From NCBI GenBank assembly GCA_043808155.1, contig JAZDFD010000013.1, positions 1 through 42,657 on the forward strand: a stretch of 42,657 nucleotides of DNA, written 5' to 3'. This DNA is from Candidatus Iainarchaeum sp. Its GTDB lineage: Archaea > Iainarchaeota > Iainarchaeia > Iainarchaeales > JAZDFD01. A model generated the notes under the pieces. That model searched no databases. It was not told where the DNA came from and saw only the letters and a program-made list of their open reading frames with translations. How positions within the stretch are numbered: the first letter of the stretch is position 1; each line of letters opens with the position of its first letter. Positions 8,226-24,549 of the stretch are shown one piece after another. The position numbers and the translations under genes were made by a program.

Positions 8226-8381
8226 TTATGGGCCTATAAATCCGCATTCTTTGCATGTGTATGGTTTTGAGGTTGATCTGCAGTGTAAGCATCTCACAAT
8301 CCTTTCCTTGCTGCATTTTGGACATTTGAATTCCACGTAATTGTCTGTAACTTCCTTGTTACATGTGCTGCAAACTTTCAT
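8226..8381 (-). CDS. Zn-ribbon protein (DUF1610 / HVO_2753-like), not in the ORF track
   Basis: Own translation MKVCSTCNKEVTDNYVEFKCPKCSKERIVRCLHCRSTSKPYTCKECGFIGP; four CxxC; AGGTGA RBS; conserved neighbour of aEF-1beta. Confidence 0.9.
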   Translation of the reverse strand: MKVCSTCNKEVTDNYVEFKCPKCSKERIVRCLHCRSTSKPYTCKECGFIGP

Positions 8382-8404
8382 AGTATTCACCTACTTTACC
8401 AAAG

Positions 8405-8468
8405 TTTAAACCCGATTGCGTACGGGTGTTCCGCGTCCCACCCGAAGTGGGGCTGCCTAACGTTTAAA
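8405..8468. other. GC-rich intergenic two-hairpin element
   Basis: acccg/cgggt (8410-8427) and cccac/gtggg (8437-8451) stems; tttaaac/gtttaaa flanks can also pair. Confidence 0.5.
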
Positions 8469-8556
8469 AACTTCAGCCTTTAATAATCTCTTAGGACTAA
8501 CATTTAAAAACCGCATGGGCGATTGAGTTCACGGGAAATCTACTCTTTCAAATTCA

Positions 8557-8564
8557 TTATAAAT
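8557..8564 (+). promoter_or_regulatory. TATA box for a probably leaderless LAGLIDADG transcript
   Basis: TTATAAAT begins 28 nt before ATG 8585; no RBS visible. Confidence 0.5.
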
Positions 8565-8584
8565 CATAAAAACCAATTTATTTT

Positions 8585-9367
8585 ATGCTTAGAGAGTTGC
8601 TTATAGATGAATCTATTTTGCCGGATTTAGCCGAAATTTGTGGAATACATGCAGGTGATGGTTATCTCAGGAATGATGGCAGAAGAAGAGACTTAGACAT
8701 CAGTGGAGGTTTCGAAGAAAAAGAATACTATGACTCACACGTAATTCCTTTATGTGAAAAAGTATTTTCAACAAGCATTACTGGACGCTATTTCAACTCA
8801 AGGAACACTTACGGATTTGTTATTCGCGATGAAGAAATTGTTAATTTCATGCTTTCATTAGGGTTCCCAAATGGCAAGAAAACACTAACCGTCAAAGCAC
8901 CTGACTTTGTAATACACTCACGAAATTTGGATATAATTTATAGATTTATTCGCGGAGTGTTTGATACTGACGGTTGTTTGAACTTCCGTAAAAGAGAAGG
9001 TAGCAACTACGCGAAGTGCGATAAATTGAAACATAGCTATCCCCGCATTCAAATTTCATCATGTTCAACATATTTAATTGACGATTTAGCAGATCTACTA
9101 AAACGAACGGGGTTTCAATTTCGACAGTGTTATGATAAAACAAAACTTGAAAATTATAATGACAAATTCAAAATTTATTTGAGAGGTTACCAAAATCTTG
9201 AAAATTGGATGTTTAATATTGGTAGCAAGAACACATCTAAACTTTCAAGGTTCAATGTCTGGCAAAAATTTGGTTTTTGTCCACCAAACACTACTTTTGA
9301 ACAGCGAACCCAAATCTTAAATAATGAATTAGATCCTAATGTATTTTACAATGGGCCTATAATCTAA
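8585..9367 (+). CDS. free-standing two-motif LAGLIDADG homing endonuclease-like protein
   Basis: LAEICGIHAGDGYL and FIRGVFDTDGCL motifs; no Hint/intein termini; last codons overlap the tRNA. Confidence 0.88.
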   Translation: MLRELLIDESILPDLAEICGIHAGDGYLRNDGRRRDLDISGGFEEKEYYDSHVIPLCEKVFSTSITGRYFNSRNTYGFVIRDEEIVNFMLSLGFPNGKKTLTVKAPDFVIHSRNLDIIYRFIRGVFDTDGCLNFRKREGSNYAKCDKLKHSYPRIQISSCSTYLIDDLADLLKRTGFQFRQCYDKTKLENYNDKFKIYLRGYQNLENWMFNIGSKNTSKLSRFNVWQKFGFCPPNTTFEQRTQILNNELDPNVFYNGPII

Positions 9368-9455
9368 TGGACAGGATATCTCGCTTCGGCTTGTTTAAGT
9401 TAGTTCTTTTGCAAGAAGATACGAGACAATGGGGGTCCGAATCCCTCTAGGCCCG
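9353..9455 (+). tRNA. tRNA-Arg(TCG) with 31-nt intron (9390-9420) at position 37/38
   Basis: Acceptor GGGCCTA/TAGGCCC, D stem ATCT/GGAT, A20 Arg identity base, anticodon stem TCTCG/CGAGA, anticodon TCG 9386-9388, T stem GGGGG/CCCTC, G73, no encoded CCA; strict BHB: CTTC/GAAG helix, 3-nt bulges GGC and ATA, outer helix TTGT/GCAA. Confidence 0.93.
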
Positions 9456-9456
9456 T

Positions 9457-10206
9457 TTATTCAATAAGCACAGAACTATTTTTTTCATATTCCGGAATTG
9501 TTAGTTCATCAACTTTTTCAGAAAAAGAATTAATCTGCTCGTAATAGGAAGAACCATCTTCTGATTCAATCCTTGCAAATACAATAAAATTATTTTTAGA
9601 ATCTAAACACAAATTTCCTGAAAATGAATCTGCAGTAATTTTGTAAAGCTTGCAATCGCGTTCATAGCTGTCACTCTCGCTTTTTTTTTCAACTACAATC
9701 AAATCACGTGCATTACTGACACTAAGTCCTCTAAGAAATGAAAAAATTCTTTCATTGTCAAAAAACCTATTGAAGTGAACAGGACTCAGAGAACTTTCAA
9801 CACATCCACTTTTACATTCAACAACAATGTCCTCCAAATACCACTTAGTGTCTTCTTCCTCAATTTTAATCAAATTTCCTTTTTTTTCAATGATTTGTTT
9901 TTTATTATATTTTTCTTCGTTTCCTAATTTTAATTTAACAGTTCTTTCAAGTGAAAATTCTTTTATGTTTTTCAAATTTCCGATTTTTTCAAAGAATTTA
10001 TCACCCTCACTTTCAAAATCCTCCGCTGCAGTTTCATCAGTTTCAAGAATAACATTTACAAGAGAATCTGAATTGGAATTTGTTACATTTTCAGAAATCA
10101 CAGCCCCATCATTCCCCCCATTAACAAAAATATCCTCTTCACTAATGCACCCACTAATCAGCAAAGAAAAAATAATTAATCCAAATACTAATCCACTTAA
10201 TTTCAT
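9457..10206 (-). CDS. putative lipoprotein / secreted protein
   Basis: MKLSGLVFGLIIFSLLISGC lipobox-type signal; ATGA overlap with the upstream gene. Confidence 0.7.
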   Translation of the reverse strand: MKLSGLVFGLIIFSLLISGCISEEDIFVNGGNDGAVISENVTNSNSDSLVNVILETDETAAEDFESEGDKFFEKIGNLKNIKEFSLERTVKLKLGNEEKYNKKQIIEKKGNLIKIEEEDTKWYLEDIVVECKSGCVESSLSPVHFNRFFDNERIFSFLRGLSVSNARDLIVVEKKSESDSYERDCKLYKITADSFSGNLCLDSKNNFIVFARIESEDGSSYYEQINSFSEKVDELTIPEYEKNSSVLIE

Positions 10207-13142
10207 GAACACCCACCAGTGAATGCATGCATTTTCGGATCACCAATTTTAATTTCAATCCCTGCAAGATATTTACTCCCTAAATAATAACTGTCTGCTA
10301 AAACACAACCATCAGCATATGCTTTAACAAAGTGATATGGGTCTGAATATTGATTATCAAATCCTGATGTCACAACCCCGCTACTGCCTGAAGCACCATC
10401 ATTAATCAAATCAATTCCCAGTGTTTGCGTAGGACTTGCATGCCCGCCATTATGAGAATATGCAGTGTTTGGTGCAATTAATTCTGAAATTGAACCTTTG
10501 AGCCAATTAACATTTGGGGTATGGTCGCAAGTCCATTCACTGTCAAAGTCCTTTCCACCGGAAATTAAAACCGCAACATTAGTTTCTGATAAATCACAGA
10601 CACTGTTGTCCTTGTCAACAATAACACTATTTGCAGGCAAAACTTCTGATGCTCTGTGTATCAAAGTATTAAGTCTGCATTTTGCATTGTTAGTTCCCTG
10701 GTCTAAATAATCAAACACCAATGTTTTTGATGCACCTGTATTCACTTCAAACACATCATCAATAAGCTGTTTTGAATCATCAGGCAGTAAATCCCCATCT
10801 GTATCATCAGGAAATGAATCAATACGCGTAACTAAATACAAATTTGAAATATTGAACTGCCCGCTCTCTGAATAAGTTGGTAAATTGGGAACGGGATTAA
10901 AGCCACACTCTTCTAACTCATAATCTTTGGTTTCAGTTCCGGCAGTTCCTGCATAGGGGTTTGGAGTATTATATCCGAACCCATATTTCACTAATGTAAG
11001 TGCAGAATCAACAGACGCAAGTACATCCCCCGAAGAATTAGTAATTTTCAGTGGCAGTCCTTTCATAAGCGCAATATATTTTATACCGCTAATTGAATCC
11101 AAACAAGTATCTACACCAGTCATTATCAAATTTTGGAAATCATTTTCTGAAATTGTTTCACTAGTACCAAGTCCCGCAATTCCACATTTTTGATTTTCTA
11201 TTTTATGAATTCCCGCATAATATTCTGCAAGTTTGCTTGAAGTTACATTATTTGCATTAAAAACAACAAGCACATCATCATAATCATAATATGCACCTGG
11301 ATTGTAAACTGGTACAATTCTTTGGAATGAACTTCCGCTTACATTTTCTGCATCTGTATTTCCTGCACTTGAATGTGCAATGCATCCAACATAATAATCT
11401 GTTTCGCGCAGCCCATTAACAAGTGGACATTTATATGTGAAATTATTCAGTCCTGCAACAAAATTATGCATTTCCTCTCTTCCGCAATATTTATTGTTTG
11501 GATTACTTACATCAATTGGAAGTGAAGGGTCAGTCACCATGTAACATTTAACAGAAACATTATTTTCCGCATTATCTTTATCAACAGTTACATCTACATC
11601 CAAAAGCGTATTCCTATAATCAATATTTCCGCTTGGAAGTATGTCATTAATTATTAAAGTAAAATTTTCAATAGGATAAGGAATTTTTTCTATTGTTCCT
11701 GCACTTACACCTGTGCTGTTTACCCAATCATTAGCACCATGCTGGTCATCCCTAACTCTGCACCAAATAGGATACGAGACATTCTCTGCAAAGTTTGTTA
11801 GGTTACAGCTGTAATTCACGTTTCCATTATGCTGATTTTCCAAAGTATTATTGCAAGAAATTGAAGTGTCACCTAAATTTCCTGCAAAGCATTGCACAGT
11901 CATGTTATCATTTTCAGTATCATTAATCGTGAGCGTGATTGCATAATTGGATTCCCATGTTTGAACTGGAGTTGTTGGTTCACCCATTACAGGTGCATCT
12001 GGTATATTGTTTGGTGCTTCGCATGTATCATGAATAGTGCACCTGTCTGATGCATTTGCAAATTTATCATAACACCACCACTCACCTGTTATTCCTGTTC
12101 CATATTTCGCTTCACAATCTGCAGGGAATGACGGATCATTTGGATCGCAATCTTCGGTATAACCTGGTTCATCATCTACAATTCCATTTCCACACAAACC
12201 ACAAACCTGCTCAGAATCACAATCATCATCATAACAATCACTTAATGAATCACAATCATTGTCTGCATTATCTGTACATTGCGTTTCTGCACTGCAAGAT
12301 GAATCTACTGAACAGTCGCTATCACAACAGTCAGTCAATCCATCATCATCTTCATCTTCGCCTGTGTTGCAATAACCAACTTCATTTTCTTTCTTACAAT
12401 CTAAATCGTCATCTTCATAATCTGTTTTGCCGTCACAGTCATTATCTATATTGTCATTGCATGTTCCCTGTGCTTCAGATTCTTCCCATGCGCCCTTACA
12501 TTGTGAATCCGCACAATCCTTGTAACTATCACAATCATCATCTAATCCATTGCTGCATAAAATAAAATTACTTCCATCACTCTCTGGTTTTTCAGTATCT
12601 CCTCCCAAATAATCAGGTGGACTCTGTGCTTCACAACAATCAATGTCATACCATTGGGCGTCATTTTTGCATGCGTTTTCAGTACACCTTTTATACGCTT
12701 GATTGCCACTCACATGTGCAATACAGTCCCCATAATAACAATCAGAATAATAACACGGATTTCCTGATTCAGAAGTTGTTTTACAATCATTATCAGTTTT
12801 TGGGACAAGATAAGGATCAAACTCGCAAATTTCCACCCCACAGGTTCCATTGTAACATTTTTCAACAACCCCCGGAACAAAACACGTAGTCCATTGAGTG
12901 TTAACACATTTTTTTATTCCCTCAATTTCACCTCCGCCAATTTTTACAATACAGGGAACTTCTTCGCCTTCTTCAACACAGGGATAACTAATACCTCCGC
13001 CAGTCTCAAGCGCCATATTTGAAACACCCTTTCCCATGCCCGCAAGAACTACAAGTACAACAGCAACAATAAGCAATGCCCCTGCAATAAGTAAAAGATA
13101 TTCAATCGCACCCTGAGCACGGGATTTGGATAGAGCCTCCAT
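10203..13142 (-). CDS. 979-aa class III signal-peptide surface protein: Cys/Asp-rich repeats, beta-rich middle, C-terminal TIGR03790-like domain
   Basis: RA|QGAIEYLLLIAGALLIVAVV N-terminus; DNDCDG..DC.D.DC repeats; CGNG..EDCD; C-terminal VLVVFNAN..S..LAEYYA, YIALMKGLPLKI, SVDSAL, LYLVTRID, IGDP. Confidence 0.7.
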   Translation of the reverse strand: MEALSKSRAQGAIEYLLLIAGALLIVAVVLVVLAGMGKGVSNMALETGGGISYPCVEEGEEVPCIVKIGGGEIEGIKKCVNTQWTTCFVPGVVEKCYNGTCGVEICEFDPYLVPKTDNDCKTTSESGNPCYYSDCYYGDCIAHVSGNQAYKRCTENACKNDAQWYDIDCCEAQSPPDYLGGDTEKPESDGSNFILCSNGLDDDCDSYKDCADSQCKGAWEESEAQGTCNDNIDNDCDGKTDYEDDDLDCKKENEVGYCNTGEDEDDDGLTDCCDSDCSVDSSCSAETQCTDNADNDCDSLSDCYDDDCDSEQVCGLCGNGIVDDEPGYTEDCDPNDPSFPADCEAKYGTGITGEWWCYDKFANASDRCTIHDTCEAPNNIPDAPVMGEPTTPVQTWESNYAITLTINDTENDNMTVQCFAGNLGDTSISCNNTLENQHNGNVNYSCNLTNFAENVSYPIWCRVRDDQHGANDWVNSTGVSAGTIEKIPYPIENFTLIINDILPSGNIDYRNTLLDVDVTVDKDNAENNVSVKCYMVTDPSLPIDVSNPNNKYCGREEMHNFVAGLNNFTYKCPLVNGLRETDYYVGCIAHSSAGNTDAENVSGSSFQRIVPVYNPGAYYDYDDVLVVFNANNVTSSKLAEYYAGIHKIENQKCGIAGLGTSETISENDFQNLIMTGVDTCLDSISGIKYIALMKGLPLKITNSSGDVLASVDSALTLVKYGFGYNTPNPYAGTAGTETKDYELEECGFNPVPNLPTYSESGQFNISNLYLVTRIDSFPDDTDGDLLPDDSKQLIDDVFEVNTGASKTLVFDYLDQGTNNAKCRLNTLIHRASEVLPANSVIVDKDNSVCDLSETNVAVLISGGKDFDSEWTCDHTPNVNWLKGSISELIAPNTAYSHNGGHASPTQTLGIDLINDGASGSSGVVTSGFDNQYSDPYHFVKAYADGCVLADSYYLGSKYLAGIEIKIGDPKMHAFTGGCS

Positions 13143-20978: not shown

Positions 20979-22019
20979 CTAGTTAATCTGGAATCTCAAA
21001 ATAGCAGCAATCCCTGTAATTGATTCCAGTTTTTTTCCTGCTTCATTTCCAGAACTGATTATATTCACATTAGCTTTGCCTAATTCTGCATTTTTCATTA
21101 TTTCTTCTAATTCATCACGTTTACTAATGAGCATTTTATCAAGAATCAGCAATTCAGAAACTGCGTGCATCGCAACCGCAGATTTCACTTCTTCAAGTCC
21201 ATAAGAAACCAATCCCGAACTCTTGCCAAGTTCTTCAAAAACTTTCTCAACCAACTTTGCTTCTTTACTTATTTGTGTTTCTTCAACAATCTTATCCAGA
21301 ATTCCGGTTTTTAACAATTCATTTAATCCTGTAACTCCAACTGAATTGCAACTTTCATAAAAGATTTTGCCATTAAATTTTTTACCCTGAACATATTTGC
21401 CAAATTTATTTCGCGTAAACCCCGGGCCTGCAATAACAACTTCCTCTGGTTCATACTCCAGAATTTTATCAAAAACCTGTTTGAAATAATTTTCCTCAGT
21501 TCCCAAATCTTCCTCAAACATCTTTCCTTTTTTTCCTGAATTAATAACAGCTCTTGGTTCCATTTTGAATTCTTTCATAATTGCAAAACTCGCACTTTCA
21601 TCATCCATCACAATTAGAAGCACAGGACTCTTATGCGTTGCTTTCTTAGCTTTCTCTAATCTGTCAACATGATGTTTGCCCCAAATATGTTTCACTATTT
21701 CAATATCCTTCCCAGTTTGCACATCAATTGACTGATGTGATTTCATTTCAATAAATTCTTCAGGTTTCCCGCCTAAAATAATTCCGTTAATTCTCAGATT
21801 GCCTGTTGTTTCATGAAACTCAACACTTTCTACTTCTAATATAACGAAAAGTTTCACTCTTTTAGCATCTCTTCCTTCTTCACTTTTAATTTTCCTGTCA
21901 GTGCTGCCGCTAACTAAATCTCCTTTCTCAATAACTCTTTCCAGATGCCATAAATCATCTTTTGTTTCCGGCACTAGTTTCAGAGTTTTACTCTTTGCAT
22001 CCACTTTCAGAATTTTCAT
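20979..22019 (-). CDS. pelA: Pelota (Dom34) ribosome rescue factor
   Basis: PETKDDLWHL, LRINGII, IAGPGF, VSYGLEEV, GIAAILRF. Confidence 0.95.
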   Translation of the reverse strand: MKILKVDAKSKTLKLVPETKDDLWHLERVIEKGDLVSGSTDRKIKSEEGRDAKRVKLFVILEVESVEFHETTGNLRINGIILGGKPEEFIEMKSHQSIDVQTGKDIEIVKHIWGKHHVDRLEKAKKATHKSPVLLIVMDDESASFAIMKEFKMEPRAVINSGKKGKMFEEDLGTEENYFKQVFDKILEYEPEEVVIAGPGFTRNKFGKYVQGKKFNGKIFYESCNSVGVTGLNELLKTGILDKIVEETQISKEAKLVEKVFEELGKSSGLVSYGLEEVKSAVAMHAVSELLILDKMLISKRDELEEIMKNAELGKANVNIISSGNEAGKKLESITGIAAILRFQIN

Positions 22020-22755: not shown

Positions 22756-24549
22756 ATGTCATACATGGCTTCAGATGAAAGTAAAAAATTGAGGATTGCG
22801 GTAATAGATTACGACAAGTGCCAGCCTGATAAATGCAATTACTTATGCATAAGGGTTTGCCCAGTCAACAGAACAGACAAGGAATGCATTGTGGAATCGC
22901 CAGAAACCAAAAAACCCACAATTGCAGAAACGCTCTGTACTGGCTGCGGAATATGTGTTCACAAATGCCCTTTTAGTGCAATCTCAATCGTAAACTTAAG
23001 CTCTGAACTTGACATTCCGCTTCACCAATATGGGCAAAACACTTTCAGATTATACCACTCACCAACACCAAAAGAAAATTCAGTTGTTGGTTTGATTGGA
23101 AAAAACGGAATTGGAAAAAGTACTGCACTGAAAATTCTCGCAGGTCATATTGTGCCAAACCTTGGTAATTTTGAAAATGAAAAACCCTCTTACCATGAAA
23201 TTGTAAAATATTTCAGAGGAAATGAACTGCAAAACTTCTTTGAGAAATTAGAAAAAGGAGATATAACTTTAGCCTACAAACTTCAGAATGTTGATGAAAT
23301 TAATGAAAAATTCAAAGGCACTGTTCTGAAATTATTGGAAACATTTGATGAAAAAAATCAGCTGAATGAATTTGCTGAAAAATTAGAAATCTCAAAAATC
23401 CTAAATCACGAAATTGCAAAAATTTCCGGTGGTGAATTACAACGCGTTGCAATTGCAGCAACAATGCTAAGAAAAGCAAATATTTACTTTTTTGATGAAC
23501 CCTCAAGCTACTTAGACGTAAGGCAAAGATTAAGAGTGGCAAAACTCATACGTGAAATTTCTGAAAACGCCTCTGTAATTGTTGTTGAGCACGATCTCGC
23601 AGTTCTTGACTATCTGTCAGATTACATAAACATTCTTTACGGAATTCCAGGAGTGTATGGTGTCTGCTCAGCTTCCAAAAGTGTAAAAAACGGAATTAAT
23701 GAATTTTTAGAAGGCTACTTGAAAGATGAAAATGTAAAATTCCGCTCAAAGGAATTAAAATTTGCAATAAACCCGCCTTCACACTCCGAGAACAGAATTG
23801 CATTTTTAGAATATCCTTCAATTGAAAAAAAATACAAATCCTTTTCTCTCAAAACTGAACCAGGAACATTAATGAAAGGTGAAGTTTTAGGAATTTTAGG
23901 TCCGAACGCAATTGGAAAAACAACTTTTGTAAAAATTCTCGCAGGAGTTGAAAAACCAGATAATACTGAATTAAATTTCAAATTCAAAATTGCATACAAA
24001 CCACAATATCTCAAACCCGAAGAAGACACTGTTGTTTCAGATTTATTCACAAATGAAATTGATATGGAACTTTTCAAGTCCGAAATTGAAAGACGATTAG
24101 ATGTGAAGAAATTATTTGACAGCCAGCTTACAGAATTAAGCGGCGGTGAATTGCAGCGAGTTTCAGTTGCATTAACTCTCTGCAGAAAATCAGATTTGAT
24201 TCTTTTAGATGAACCTTCTGCTTTCATTGATGTTGAAGACAGACTGAATATTGCGGATGCAATTAAAGCAGTTGCAAATCTCAAAAATAAAGTAATAATG
24301 GTTGTAGACCACGACATCCTCTTTCAGGACTATGTTTCTGACAGATTAATCATTTTTGAAGGAACTCCTTCTCAAAATGGAAAGGCCAATGCCCCAGTTG
24401 AAATGCATGAAGGAATGAATTCATTCCTAAAAGACATGGATTTAACTTTCAGAAGAGACCCTGAAACAGGACGTCCGCGTGCAAATAAGAAGGATTCGGT
24501 AAAGGACCGGGAACAGAAGCAGCGCGGAGAATACTATTATACTGCGTAA
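22756..24549 (+). CDS. rli: ABCE1/RLI ribosome recycling ATPase
   Basis: N-terminal Fe-S Cys clusters (CTGCGICVHKCP), two ABC domains, TFRRDPETGRPRANK. Confidence 0.96.
   Translation: MSYMASDESKKLRIAVIDYDKCQPDKCNYLCIRVCPVNRTDKECIVESPETKKPTIAETLCTGCGICVHKCPFSAISIVNLSSELDIPLHQYGQNTFRLYHSPTPKENSVVGLIGKNGIGKSTALKILAGHIVPNLGNFENEKPSYHEIVKYFRGNELQNFFEKLEKGDITLAYKLQNVDEINEKFKGTVLKLLETFDEKNQLNEFAEKLEISKILNHEIAKISGGELQRVAIAATMLRKANIYFFDEPSSYLDVRQRLRVAKLIREISENASVIVVEHDLAVLDYLSDYINILYGIPGVYGVCSASKSVKNGINEFLEGYLKDENVKFRSKELKFAINPPSHSENRIAFLEYPSIEKKYKSFSLKTEPGTLMKGEVLGILGPNAIGKTTFVKILAGVEKPDNTELNFKFKIAYKPQYLKPEEDTVVSDLFTNEIDMELFKSEIERRLDVKKLFDSQLTELSGGELQRVSVALTLCRKSDLILLDEPSAFIDVEDRLNIADAIKAVANLKNKVIMVVDHDILFQDYVSDRLIIFEGTPSQNGKANAPVEMHEGMNSFLKDMDLTFRRDPETGRPRANKKDSVKDREQKQRGEYYYTA

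Follow-up and report, generated by a model that had tools for sequence, protein, structure and literature searches.

A LAGLIDADG nuclease gene ends inside tRNA-Arg(UCG)

The 42,657-nucleotide (nt) contig JAZDFD010000013.1 of Candidatus Iainarchaeum sp. (assembly GCA_043808155.1), referred to here over its whole length as the window, carries an open reading frame (ORF) for a LAGLIDADG homing endonuclease that runs into the gene for tRNA-Arg(UCG). The ORF starts at the ATG at 8585 and stops at the TAA at 9365–9367, and the first 15 nt of the tRNA gene encode the final four residues and the stop codon of the nuclease. The last five codons, GGG CCT ATA ATC TAA, are tRNA positions 1–15 read in frame from G1, with TAA occupying positions 13–15. 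An initial annotation of the window had described this overlap, and the sequence, Rfam and ARAGORN agree with it; position 9455, which it gave as the end coordinate, is the end of the tRNA and not of the ORF. The features of the locus, and two genes elsewhere in the window that enter the argument, are listed below.

8226–8390, minus strand: gene for a small Zn-ribbon protein, HVO_2753-like (Pfam PF07754, E = 6.6e-14), divergent from the nuclease gene
8556–8564, plus strand: TATA-like box ATTATAAAT, ending 20 nt before the nuclease ATG; candidate promoter
8585–9367, plus strand: LAGLIDADG homing endonuclease gene, 260 amino acids, monomeric two-domain type
8657–8659 and 8969–8971, plus strand: codons of Asp25 (motif 1) and Asp129 (motif 2)
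9188–9346, plus strand: extra C-terminal helical part of the nuclease, residues 202–254
9317–9324, plus strand: TATA-like TTAAATAA inside the ORF, codons Leu245-Asn246-Asn247, 29–36 nt before tRNA G1
9353–9455, plus strand: tRNA-Arg(UCG) with a 31-nt intron after position 37 (Rfam, ARAGORN and our own covariance model)
9353–9389, 9390–9420 and 9421–9455, plus strand: exon 1, intron and exon 2 of the tRNA, read by eye from the sequence
20979–22019: Pelota gene
22756–24549: ABCE1 gene

The tRNA scores 48.3 bits with RF00005, for which the gathering score is 29. ARAGORN reports it as tRNA-Arg(TCG) with a 31-nt intron when run with an intron search, and misses it in default mode without that search. 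Our own tRNA-Arg(UCG) model (R1) scores it at 70.5 bits, the best match in the genome of the window (G000), in which no second tRNA-Arg(UCG) was found. The nuclease ORF has its own start upstream of the tRNA, lies outside the tRNA intron (only 31 nt long) and lacks intein flanks. In agreement with the initial annotation, it does not belong to the class of homing endonucleases encoded within a spliced intron or intein. The Zn-ribbon gene, whose start is separated from the tRNA by 194 nt plus the 783-nt nuclease ORF, flanks tRNA-Arg(UCG) on the left throughout the order, a conserved arrangement as judged by synteny. The 9-mer ATTATAAAT recurs at an equal distance from the ATG in four other loci (L012, L013, L021 and L144), and as a putative promoter it would give a nuclease mRNA with no leader or nearly none.

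The encoded protein is predicted to be an active homing endonuclease

The Pfam LAGLIDADG_3 match is marginal (23 bits against a cutoff of 22.5), and the assignment was examined through motifs and structure. Both GDG (D25) and TDG (D129) are present, and D25, D127 and D129 are invariant among 40 aligned homologs. An AlphaFold2 model computed from these 40 homologs has a predicted local distance difference test (pLDDT) value of 94.5, and its best Foldseek matches are I-Tsp061I (2dch), I-DmoI, PI-SceI and PI-PfuI, with archaeal intron and intein LAGLIDADG enzymes leading. The template modelling (TM) score against 2dch is 0.76 over the target (E = 3.2e-10), and that against I-DmoI is ~0.75. The model contains the two-fold repeat of the alpha-beta-beta-alpha-beta-beta-alpha fold, and I-Tsp061I, I-DmoI and PI-SceI are matched at a Foldseek probability of 1.00. 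The protein has ~55 more C-terminal residues than I-DmoI, folded in the model as four helices (202–254). Foldseek also matched WhiA (8dy9, with a TM score of 0.60 over the query). The ORF is an intact, free-standing LAGLIDADG homing endonuclease gene whose product is predicted to be active, and the earlier description of a free-standing gene of this type, tied to a tRNA and retaining the acidic residues of both motifs, is borne out.

Most members of the family end at tRNA genes

A word-index search returned 432 homologs at E ≤ 1e-3, and an exhaustive search returned 1464, 583 and 42 clusters (50% identity) at E ≤ 1e-3, 1e-10 and 1e-30, respectively. Many homologs carry the C-terminal tails GPVA, GPVV, GPIV or GP, which are the translated 5′ end of a tRNA, and a few annotated proteins run through a whole tRNA. 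We sampled 78 loci from species-representative genomes (at least 379 relatives) and 19 from the genome and order of the window. Among the 96 family copies with a readable 3′ end, 79 finish at a tRNA boundary (within −140 to +75 nt), 72 of them at the 5′ end of a tRNA on the same strand and seven convergently at a tRNA 3′ end. The initial annotation had named this association of homologs with tRNA genes as the check to be made. The 17 copies without a tRNA boundary include several cut by a contig end or ending in what resembles the start of a tRNA but went uncalled by the tRNA finders.

The simplest explanation of the overlap in the window would be chance, an ordinary ORF running into the next gene of a compact genome, and a single 15-nt overlap is indeed unremarkable in a small, gene-dense genome. 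However, among other ORFs of at least 150 amino acids in the same loci only 22 of 349 lay near a tRNA (Fisher's exact test, P = 8.6e-50), a control count that is itself inflated because the loci were chosen around such tRNAs and genes beyond the same tRNAs were counted. Moreover, the tRNA partner of the orthologs is always tRNA-Arg. Chance adjacency is therefore extremely improbable.

In a tree of 94 rows the Arg(UCG) copies, two of which read ACG, form one clade of 49 rows with a support of 97 in the Shimodaira–Hasegawa-like approximate likelihood ratio test (SH-aLRT); 44 of these rows come with a tRNA-Arg, and five with no tRNA found or a contig end. ARAGORN 'SeC' calls were reassigned to Arg from their anticodon loops. 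Smaller clades stand beside Leu-CAA, Leu-AAG, Thr-GGT (convergent) and Arg-GCG. Several paralogs occur per genome, each beside a different tRNA, and contig C6 of the window's genome carries a further copy convergent with an intron-bearing tRNA as well as a nuclease fragment (C6:30504-30770) adjoining another tRNA. The family is thus a large superfamily of DPANN archaea at tRNA gene ends, each clade of which is tied to one tRNA species. Viral contigs (24 loci) gave only partial matches at 22–31% identity and no member of the family.

Two further observations concern the paralogs and their tRNAs. A 362-amino-acid paralog (32% identity), extended at its N-terminus, is flanked by the HMG-CoA synthase and thiolase genes of the window's genome (G000:C16:10430-11518; L079 1430-2518); no tRNA was found near it, and its partner in the tree is a similar copy in genome G008. 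Some tRNAs that adjoin family members have A at position 34, with the anticodon loop ACG in two tRNA-Arg genes (L024 and L050) and AAG in four tRNA-Leu genes (L061, L063, L066 and L071). A at this position is unusual in archaeal tRNA genes.

The tRNA-Arg(UCG) site is filled in some relatives and empty in most

A covariance model of tRNA-Arg(UCG) was built and used to locate the gene in 40 relatives of the same order. The gene order Rad50, EF-1beta, Zn-ribbon, divergent tRNA-Arg and CCA-adding enzyme is found order-wide. The nuclease gene is present at this position in 17 loci and absent from 23, so that a single synteny holds both states of a homologous site, and all 15 retrieved filled loci share it. 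In the 23 genomes with empty sites, 53–261 nt separate the Zn-ribbon ATG from tRNA-Arg(UCG), with no LAGLIDADG homology. Such empty alleles in relatives had been foreseen in the initial annotation. The Arg(UCG) clade has one fixed site, between the Zn-ribbon gene and tRNA-Arg(UCG), and this site is empty in most relatives.

The distribution of the gene is patchy. At E ≤ 1e-50 an ortholog was found in 24 of the 196 genomes of the order, in 14 of 73 genera and in six families besides the window's own (8/23 genomes in f20, 3/23 in f23, 9/38 in f11, 1/2 in f28, 1/4 in f24 and 1/1 in f25), and at the same threshold there was none in any other family of the order. Presence is mixed within genera as well, since three of seven genomes in g55 carry the gene, and g38 and g11 each contain filled genomes along with verified empty ones. 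Genome G008 retains only a remnant, residues 194–257, that still abuts the tRNA; together with the C6 fragment in the window's own genome it represents the degenerate copies that a cycle of invasion and decay would be expected to produce. The Zn-ribbon-to-tRNA spacers of L114 (596 nt) and L131 (1280 nt) were considered as possible nuclease remnants and rejected, as they contain unrelated ORFs.

In some relatives, pieces of the resident tRNA are found upstream of the nuclease gene

We compared 53 distinct upstream regions of Arg-type copies with 83 tRNA-Arg 5′ halves, using the minus strand of the same regions as the control. In L013 a run of 27/27 nt on the nuclease strand equals tRNA positions 1–27 of the empty allele in L124 and is close to that of L130; as seen in L143 (same contig as L013; genus g11), this copy lies in the 131-nt spacer upstream of the nuclease gene. 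In L001, 24/24 nt are identical to the empty allele of L129, from the same family. On the plus strand L018 has 17/17 nt, and L034 and L017 have 12/12 nt from position 1, whereas the best result of the minus-strand control was 11/11. When the regions were searched with an nhmmer profile of the tRNA-Arg 5′ half, the top matches were L018, L001 and L039, which start at model position 1 and end at positions 20–25. In L039 the nuclease ATG lies inside the D-loop of the scar.

The left junctions of these scars with the rest of the insert vary. The scar of L013 meets the cassette at a common CCGGC, and in L001 a structured stretch and then a small ORF intervene between the scar and the nuclease gene. 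In all cases the scars end at tRNA positions 13–27, which fits a break near the junction of the D-stem and anticodon stem that would have been repaired from a filled donor. Read from the scars in three to six filled loci, the element appears to sit inside a tRNA gene, with a replacement tRNA supplied downstream. The initial annotation had placed the insertion at the boundary between leader and tRNA; this is at odds with the scars, which put the break within the tRNA, at ~positions 13–27, and the new copy downstream.

Several results weigh against extending this interpretation to the whole family. Strong scars were found in three of the 53 upstream regions, with two or three weaker ones. Neither nhmmer nor the 53-region search gave a significant scar upstream of the window's nuclease gene. 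In a scan of 72 copies that took in paralogs at other tRNAs and convergent copies, nothing besides the Arg-type cases rose clearly above shuffled sequences, the best paralog being L060 (p = 0.015).

Two candidates in the window were set aside. The segment 8517–8540 (plus strand), which contains CACGGGAAA, was considered as a possible degenerate tRNA 5′ end or left end of the cassette; it is a weak look-alike with no nhmmer match. It lies where relatives carry CACCGG[AC]A upstream of the TATA box of the nuclease gene, a motif present in 16 of 51 regions in forward orientation versus two in reverse (shuffle mean 5.4). The motif is not counted as scar evidence, as in long-form relatives it falls in a possible N-terminal extension of the ORF. 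An exact 11-mer at 8229–8239, TGGGCCTATAA, is identical to the initial 10 nt of the tRNA with the nucleotide that precedes them. It was the third hit at p ≤ 0.005 in the scan of 72 copies, runs antisense to the final codons of the Zn-ribbon gene and is read as chance.

A stretch of ~190 nt with long-range complementarity was observed between the scar and the nuclease gene in L148 (= L001; ~321-700) and also upstream of the nuclease gene in L138, L144 and L151. Its 3′ strand has GGAGGTG before an acidic ORF of ~50 amino acids that overlaps the start of the long-form nuclease ORF. The stretch has no Rfam match and is absent from the window.

The linked tRNA can differ from resident alleles and often carries an intron

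The tRNA of the window is closest (85%) to the nuclease-linked tRNA of L143 (L013), which comes from another family. That tRNA in turn differs in the D and anticodon stems from the empty allele of its own genus, and is not among the close matches of that allele. In f11, four filled alleles and two empty ones differ mainly at positions 26–28 and their partners 42–44, and by an intron after position 37. Against a general exchange of the tRNA, the linked tRNAs of f20 and f28 are ~90% identical to the empty alleles of their own families, so that not every filled locus shows clear signs of an imported tRNA.

Introns were found in 12 of 17 filled alleles versus 4 of 25 alleles without the nuclease gene (Fisher's exact test, P = 0.00085, uncorrected for the kinship of the genomes), and the contrast has the same direction in f11, f20 and f28. 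Because the genomes are related, we take these counts as a hint and not as a test. The extra intron in the linked tRNAs of L020 and L027 lies where the scars end. It is conceivable, though we give the idea tentative credence at best, that tRNA-targeting nucleases are a principal source of the selection that shaped the unusual tRNA genes of DPANN archaea. An intron, whether canonical after position 37 or non-canonical in the D-arm or anticodon, would then act with compensated changes around 26–28 to protect the linked tRNA copy from the adjacent enzyme, and introns would be spread or kept along with the cassettes.

Some peculiarities of the linked tRNAs were also seen. Read by eye, non-canonical introns occur in the D-arm at ~positions 22–26 (L020 and L027) and inside the anticodon (L020 and L034). 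The T-loop of the window's tRNA (exon 2, ~9432–9438) is TCCGAAT instead of the usual TTCGAAT, a variant shared with genome G035.

The shared stop codon looks like a by-product of compaction

We located the first in-frame stop in 46 Arg-type copies. It lies inside the tRNA in 19 (positions 8–10 in eight, 13–15 in seven and elsewhere in four), straddles G1 in seven and is upstream of the tRNA in 20, of which 18 stop within 40 nt of the tRNA. Because three frames are in use, the residues of the tail are not under selection. As far as these sequences tell, the conserved feature is the tight packing of the ORF against the tRNA, and the sharing of a stop seems to follow from compaction and not to serve regulation. 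Stop borrowing, as proposed earlier, is not supported as a conserved design, given the different frames in use and the many copies with a stop of their own.

In 24 empty alleles, TATA-like 8-mers start mostly at −32 to −28 relative to the tRNA, and in 32 filled loci of the window's type they start mostly at −39 to −30, where the box falls on conserved Ile-Leu-Asn codons. The box TTAAATAA inside the window's ORF, to which the initial annotation had drawn attention as an alternative promoter, lies about where empty alleles carry theirs. In 14 loci whose nuclease has a 30-residue C-terminal extension the box starts at −34 to −31 and includes the stop codon. Leu245 is encoded by TTA in 19 of 24 cases, whereas at the other Leu positions of these genes TTA accounts for 226 of 513 codons (p = 0.0012), a difference suggestive of codon choice under promoter constraint. 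Against this, TTA is also weakly favoured in the extension subgroup, where the codon is more than 110 nt from the tRNA (10/19 versus 111/367, p = 0.07). The last ~40 nt of the ORF probably carry the promoter of the tRNA.

These observations bear on the mechanism favoured in the initial annotation, namely that insertion takes place where leader and tRNA meet, that the tRNA's stop is borrowed on purpose, that RNase P cleavage of a shared transcript yields a non-stop mRNA, and that nuclease expression is thereby coupled to tRNA maturation and to rescue by Pelota and ABCE1. The stops inside the tRNA here and in 19 of the 46 orthologs, and the seven more that straddle G1, fit such a scheme. RNase P RNA is present in the window's genome, and Pelota and ABCE1 do lie in the window, as had been stated. 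However, frame and stop position vary, 20 orthologs have their own upstream stop, the scars place the break within the tRNA gene and not at its 5′ edge, and G1 is preceded, at the spacing of a promoter, by a TATA-like box. For the seven convergent copies a shared transcript is impossible. ABCE1 lies ~10 kb from tRNA-Arg in most relatives whether or not the nuclease gene is present, empty-site relatives included, so that its proximity reflects synteny only. With RNase P RNA in the genome, either a short leader or a co-transcript could be processed. We regard this model, taken as a whole, as very unlikely.

Signs of vertical inheritance and of recent events

The nuclease subclades track host families. 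In an approximately unbiased (AU) test, a tree that groups the order's 19 copies as one clade was not rejected (p-AU 0.618) and scored slightly better. Because the tree does not demand long-range transfer, an ancient presence with many losses is possible. ABCE1 identity, at 55–61% among five genomes sharing the element and 47–63% among same-order relatives, does not discriminate. These points count against the mobile-element reading. As the subclades follow their hosts, the single clade is not rejected and close viral relatives are lacking, spread, if it is still going on, would be mostly among close relatives, as homing by homologous repair would predict. Where perfect scars of the resident type adjoin tRNAs of the foreign type, they speak for recent events, in no fewer than two or three lineages.

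A host protein inherited vertically, ancient in DPANN archaea, often lost and no longer mobile, is the alternative suggested by these trees. Its role would be to bind specific DNA sites or to regulate the tRNA-Arg locus, much as WhiA does. The ~50% identity kept across several DPANN groups, the agreement of clades with host families and the compatibility with a single clade for the order are what such a protein would show, as are a single copy per tRNA locus and the extra C-terminal helical part with its structural likeness to WhiA. A domesticated regulator would not readily explain why the gene was not found in 172 of the 196 genomes of the order and is missing from 23 verified sites, why presence is mixed within genera and one genome holds a truncated remnant, or why the catalytic Asp is invariant. 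Perfect, non-functional resident-type tRNA scars beside a foreign-type tRNA, and several paralogs per genome at different tRNAs, also speak against it. We therefore consider domestication unlikely.

Proposed mechanism and significance

The explanation that we consider probable is that a selfish nuclease gene breaks tRNA-Arg(UCG) and installs a new copy of the tRNA, the shared stop being a by-product of compaction. The enzyme would cut an element-free tRNA-Arg(UCG) gene near the junction of the D-stem and anticodon stem, at ~positions 24–27, a site suggested by the scar ends and by analogy with homing. Repair would then copy a cassette from a filled allele, consisting of the nuclease gene and a tRNA copy that is altered around the cut site, often intron-bearing and presumably immune to cleavage. 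The 5′ part of the resident tRNA would persist on the upstream side as a non-functional scar. Since the incoming tRNA copy cannot do without a promoter, its TATA region would be accommodated in the final ~40 nt of the ORF, which is pressed against G1. The ORF would run on to the first stop, and each frame of the tRNA has an early one: TA followed by G1, U8-R9-R10 or N13-A14-R15. An early stop in every frame makes the shared stop an expected by-product of compaction. The window's copy, at the same syntenic site, would have the same origin. In outline, then, the initial annotation's selfish tRNA-linked element stands; the regulatory meaning that it gave to the shared stop is not supported.

More interesting than the shared stop would be a family-wide strategy of invading tRNA genes. 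Homing endonuclease genes survive in essential genes inside introns or inteins, or they lie between genes. In archaeal chromosomes the superfamily, counted as 583 clusters at E ≤ 1e-10, appears to follow a third route, in which a tRNA gene is broken and a fresh copy with its own promoter is installed. If this is true, the family would constitute a natural set of enzymes, each recognising a different tRNA gene, a marker by which the exchange of DNA between uncultured DPANN archaea could be traced, and a testable reason for the many tRNA introns that these archaea keep. For annotation, C-terminal tails such as GPVA or GPII should be taken as translated tRNA. Full-text literature searches returned no description of a tRNA-targeting LAGLIDADG family.

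Other features around the locus

Between the Zn-ribbon and nuclease genes, window positions 8405–8460 form a G+C-rich stretch with hairpin potential; it matches no Rfam family at the gathering score, and a similar stretch, apparently inverted, lies upstream of the empty-site tRNA in L108. To the right, two minus-strand genes (9457–13142), encoding a 251-residue protein with a lipoprotein-like start and a Cys-rich protein of 979 residues, separate the tRNA from the gene for the CCA-adding enzyme, which in many relatives abuts the tRNA. Among the DNA contigs of three runs, one from run X2 joins 8315 to 9353, the first base of the tRNA, and skips 1037 nt. It was not used as evidence, as only 21 letters lie on the shorter side of the join, the likeness threshold was 85, and the contig may come from another organism.

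Comparison with known systems

The archaeal intron and intein LAGLIDADG enzymes I-Tsp061I, I-DmoI and PI-PfuI, and also PI-SceI, share with the window's protein the monomeric two-domain fold and both catalytic acidic residues. Unlike them, the window's protein is encoded by a free-standing gene outside any bulge-helix-bulge intron or intein, is ~60 residues longer with its added C-terminal helical part, and has as its partner a tRNA and not an rRNA or protein gene. WhiA, a degenerate LAGLIDADG regulator of bacteria, resembles it in combining a LAGLIDADG scaffold with a C-terminal helical extension. WhiA lacks the catalytic Asp residues. Here they are kept, the distribution is patchy and empty sites exist, so that neither loss of the catalytic residues nor vertical fixation is seen.

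Integrative elements that use an integrase insert into a tRNA gene and restore the displaced part by a copy. The present element differs in having no integrase, in being an insert of ~1 kb between syntenic genes, and in duplicating the 5′ part of the tRNA instead of the 3′ part. SegB of phage T4 is likewise a free-standing homing endonuclease encoded among tRNA genes, and it drives preferential inheritance of the tRNA region in which it lies (PMC2330249). It belongs to another nuclease family (GIY-YIG) and to a phage genome, and the abstract of that report mentions neither duplication of a tRNA 5′ end nor overlap with a tRNA.

The closest mechanistic parallel that we found is offered by the mobile open reading frames (mORFs) of fungal mitochondria. 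In Glomus atp6, atp9, cox2 and nad3, as described in excerpts of PMC3630166, an endonuclease ORF moves together with a duplicate of the end of the neighbouring gene; the native gene end persists without being expressed and agrees with that of close relatives, and the inserted end is divergent. The same source cites the case of the atp6 mORF of Allomyces macrogynus. The scars described here show the same pattern, with a duplicated gene end of the mORF type in the relatives L013 (27/27), L001 (24/24) and L018 (17/17) and none of significance at the window's copy. Set against what these excerpts relate, the arrangement is a mirror image. In mORFs the 3′ coding end of a protein gene is replaced, whereas here, on an archaeal chromosome and with a tRNA as the target, the replaced part would be the 5′ end of the tRNA together with its promoter, with no in-frame fusion to a host gene.

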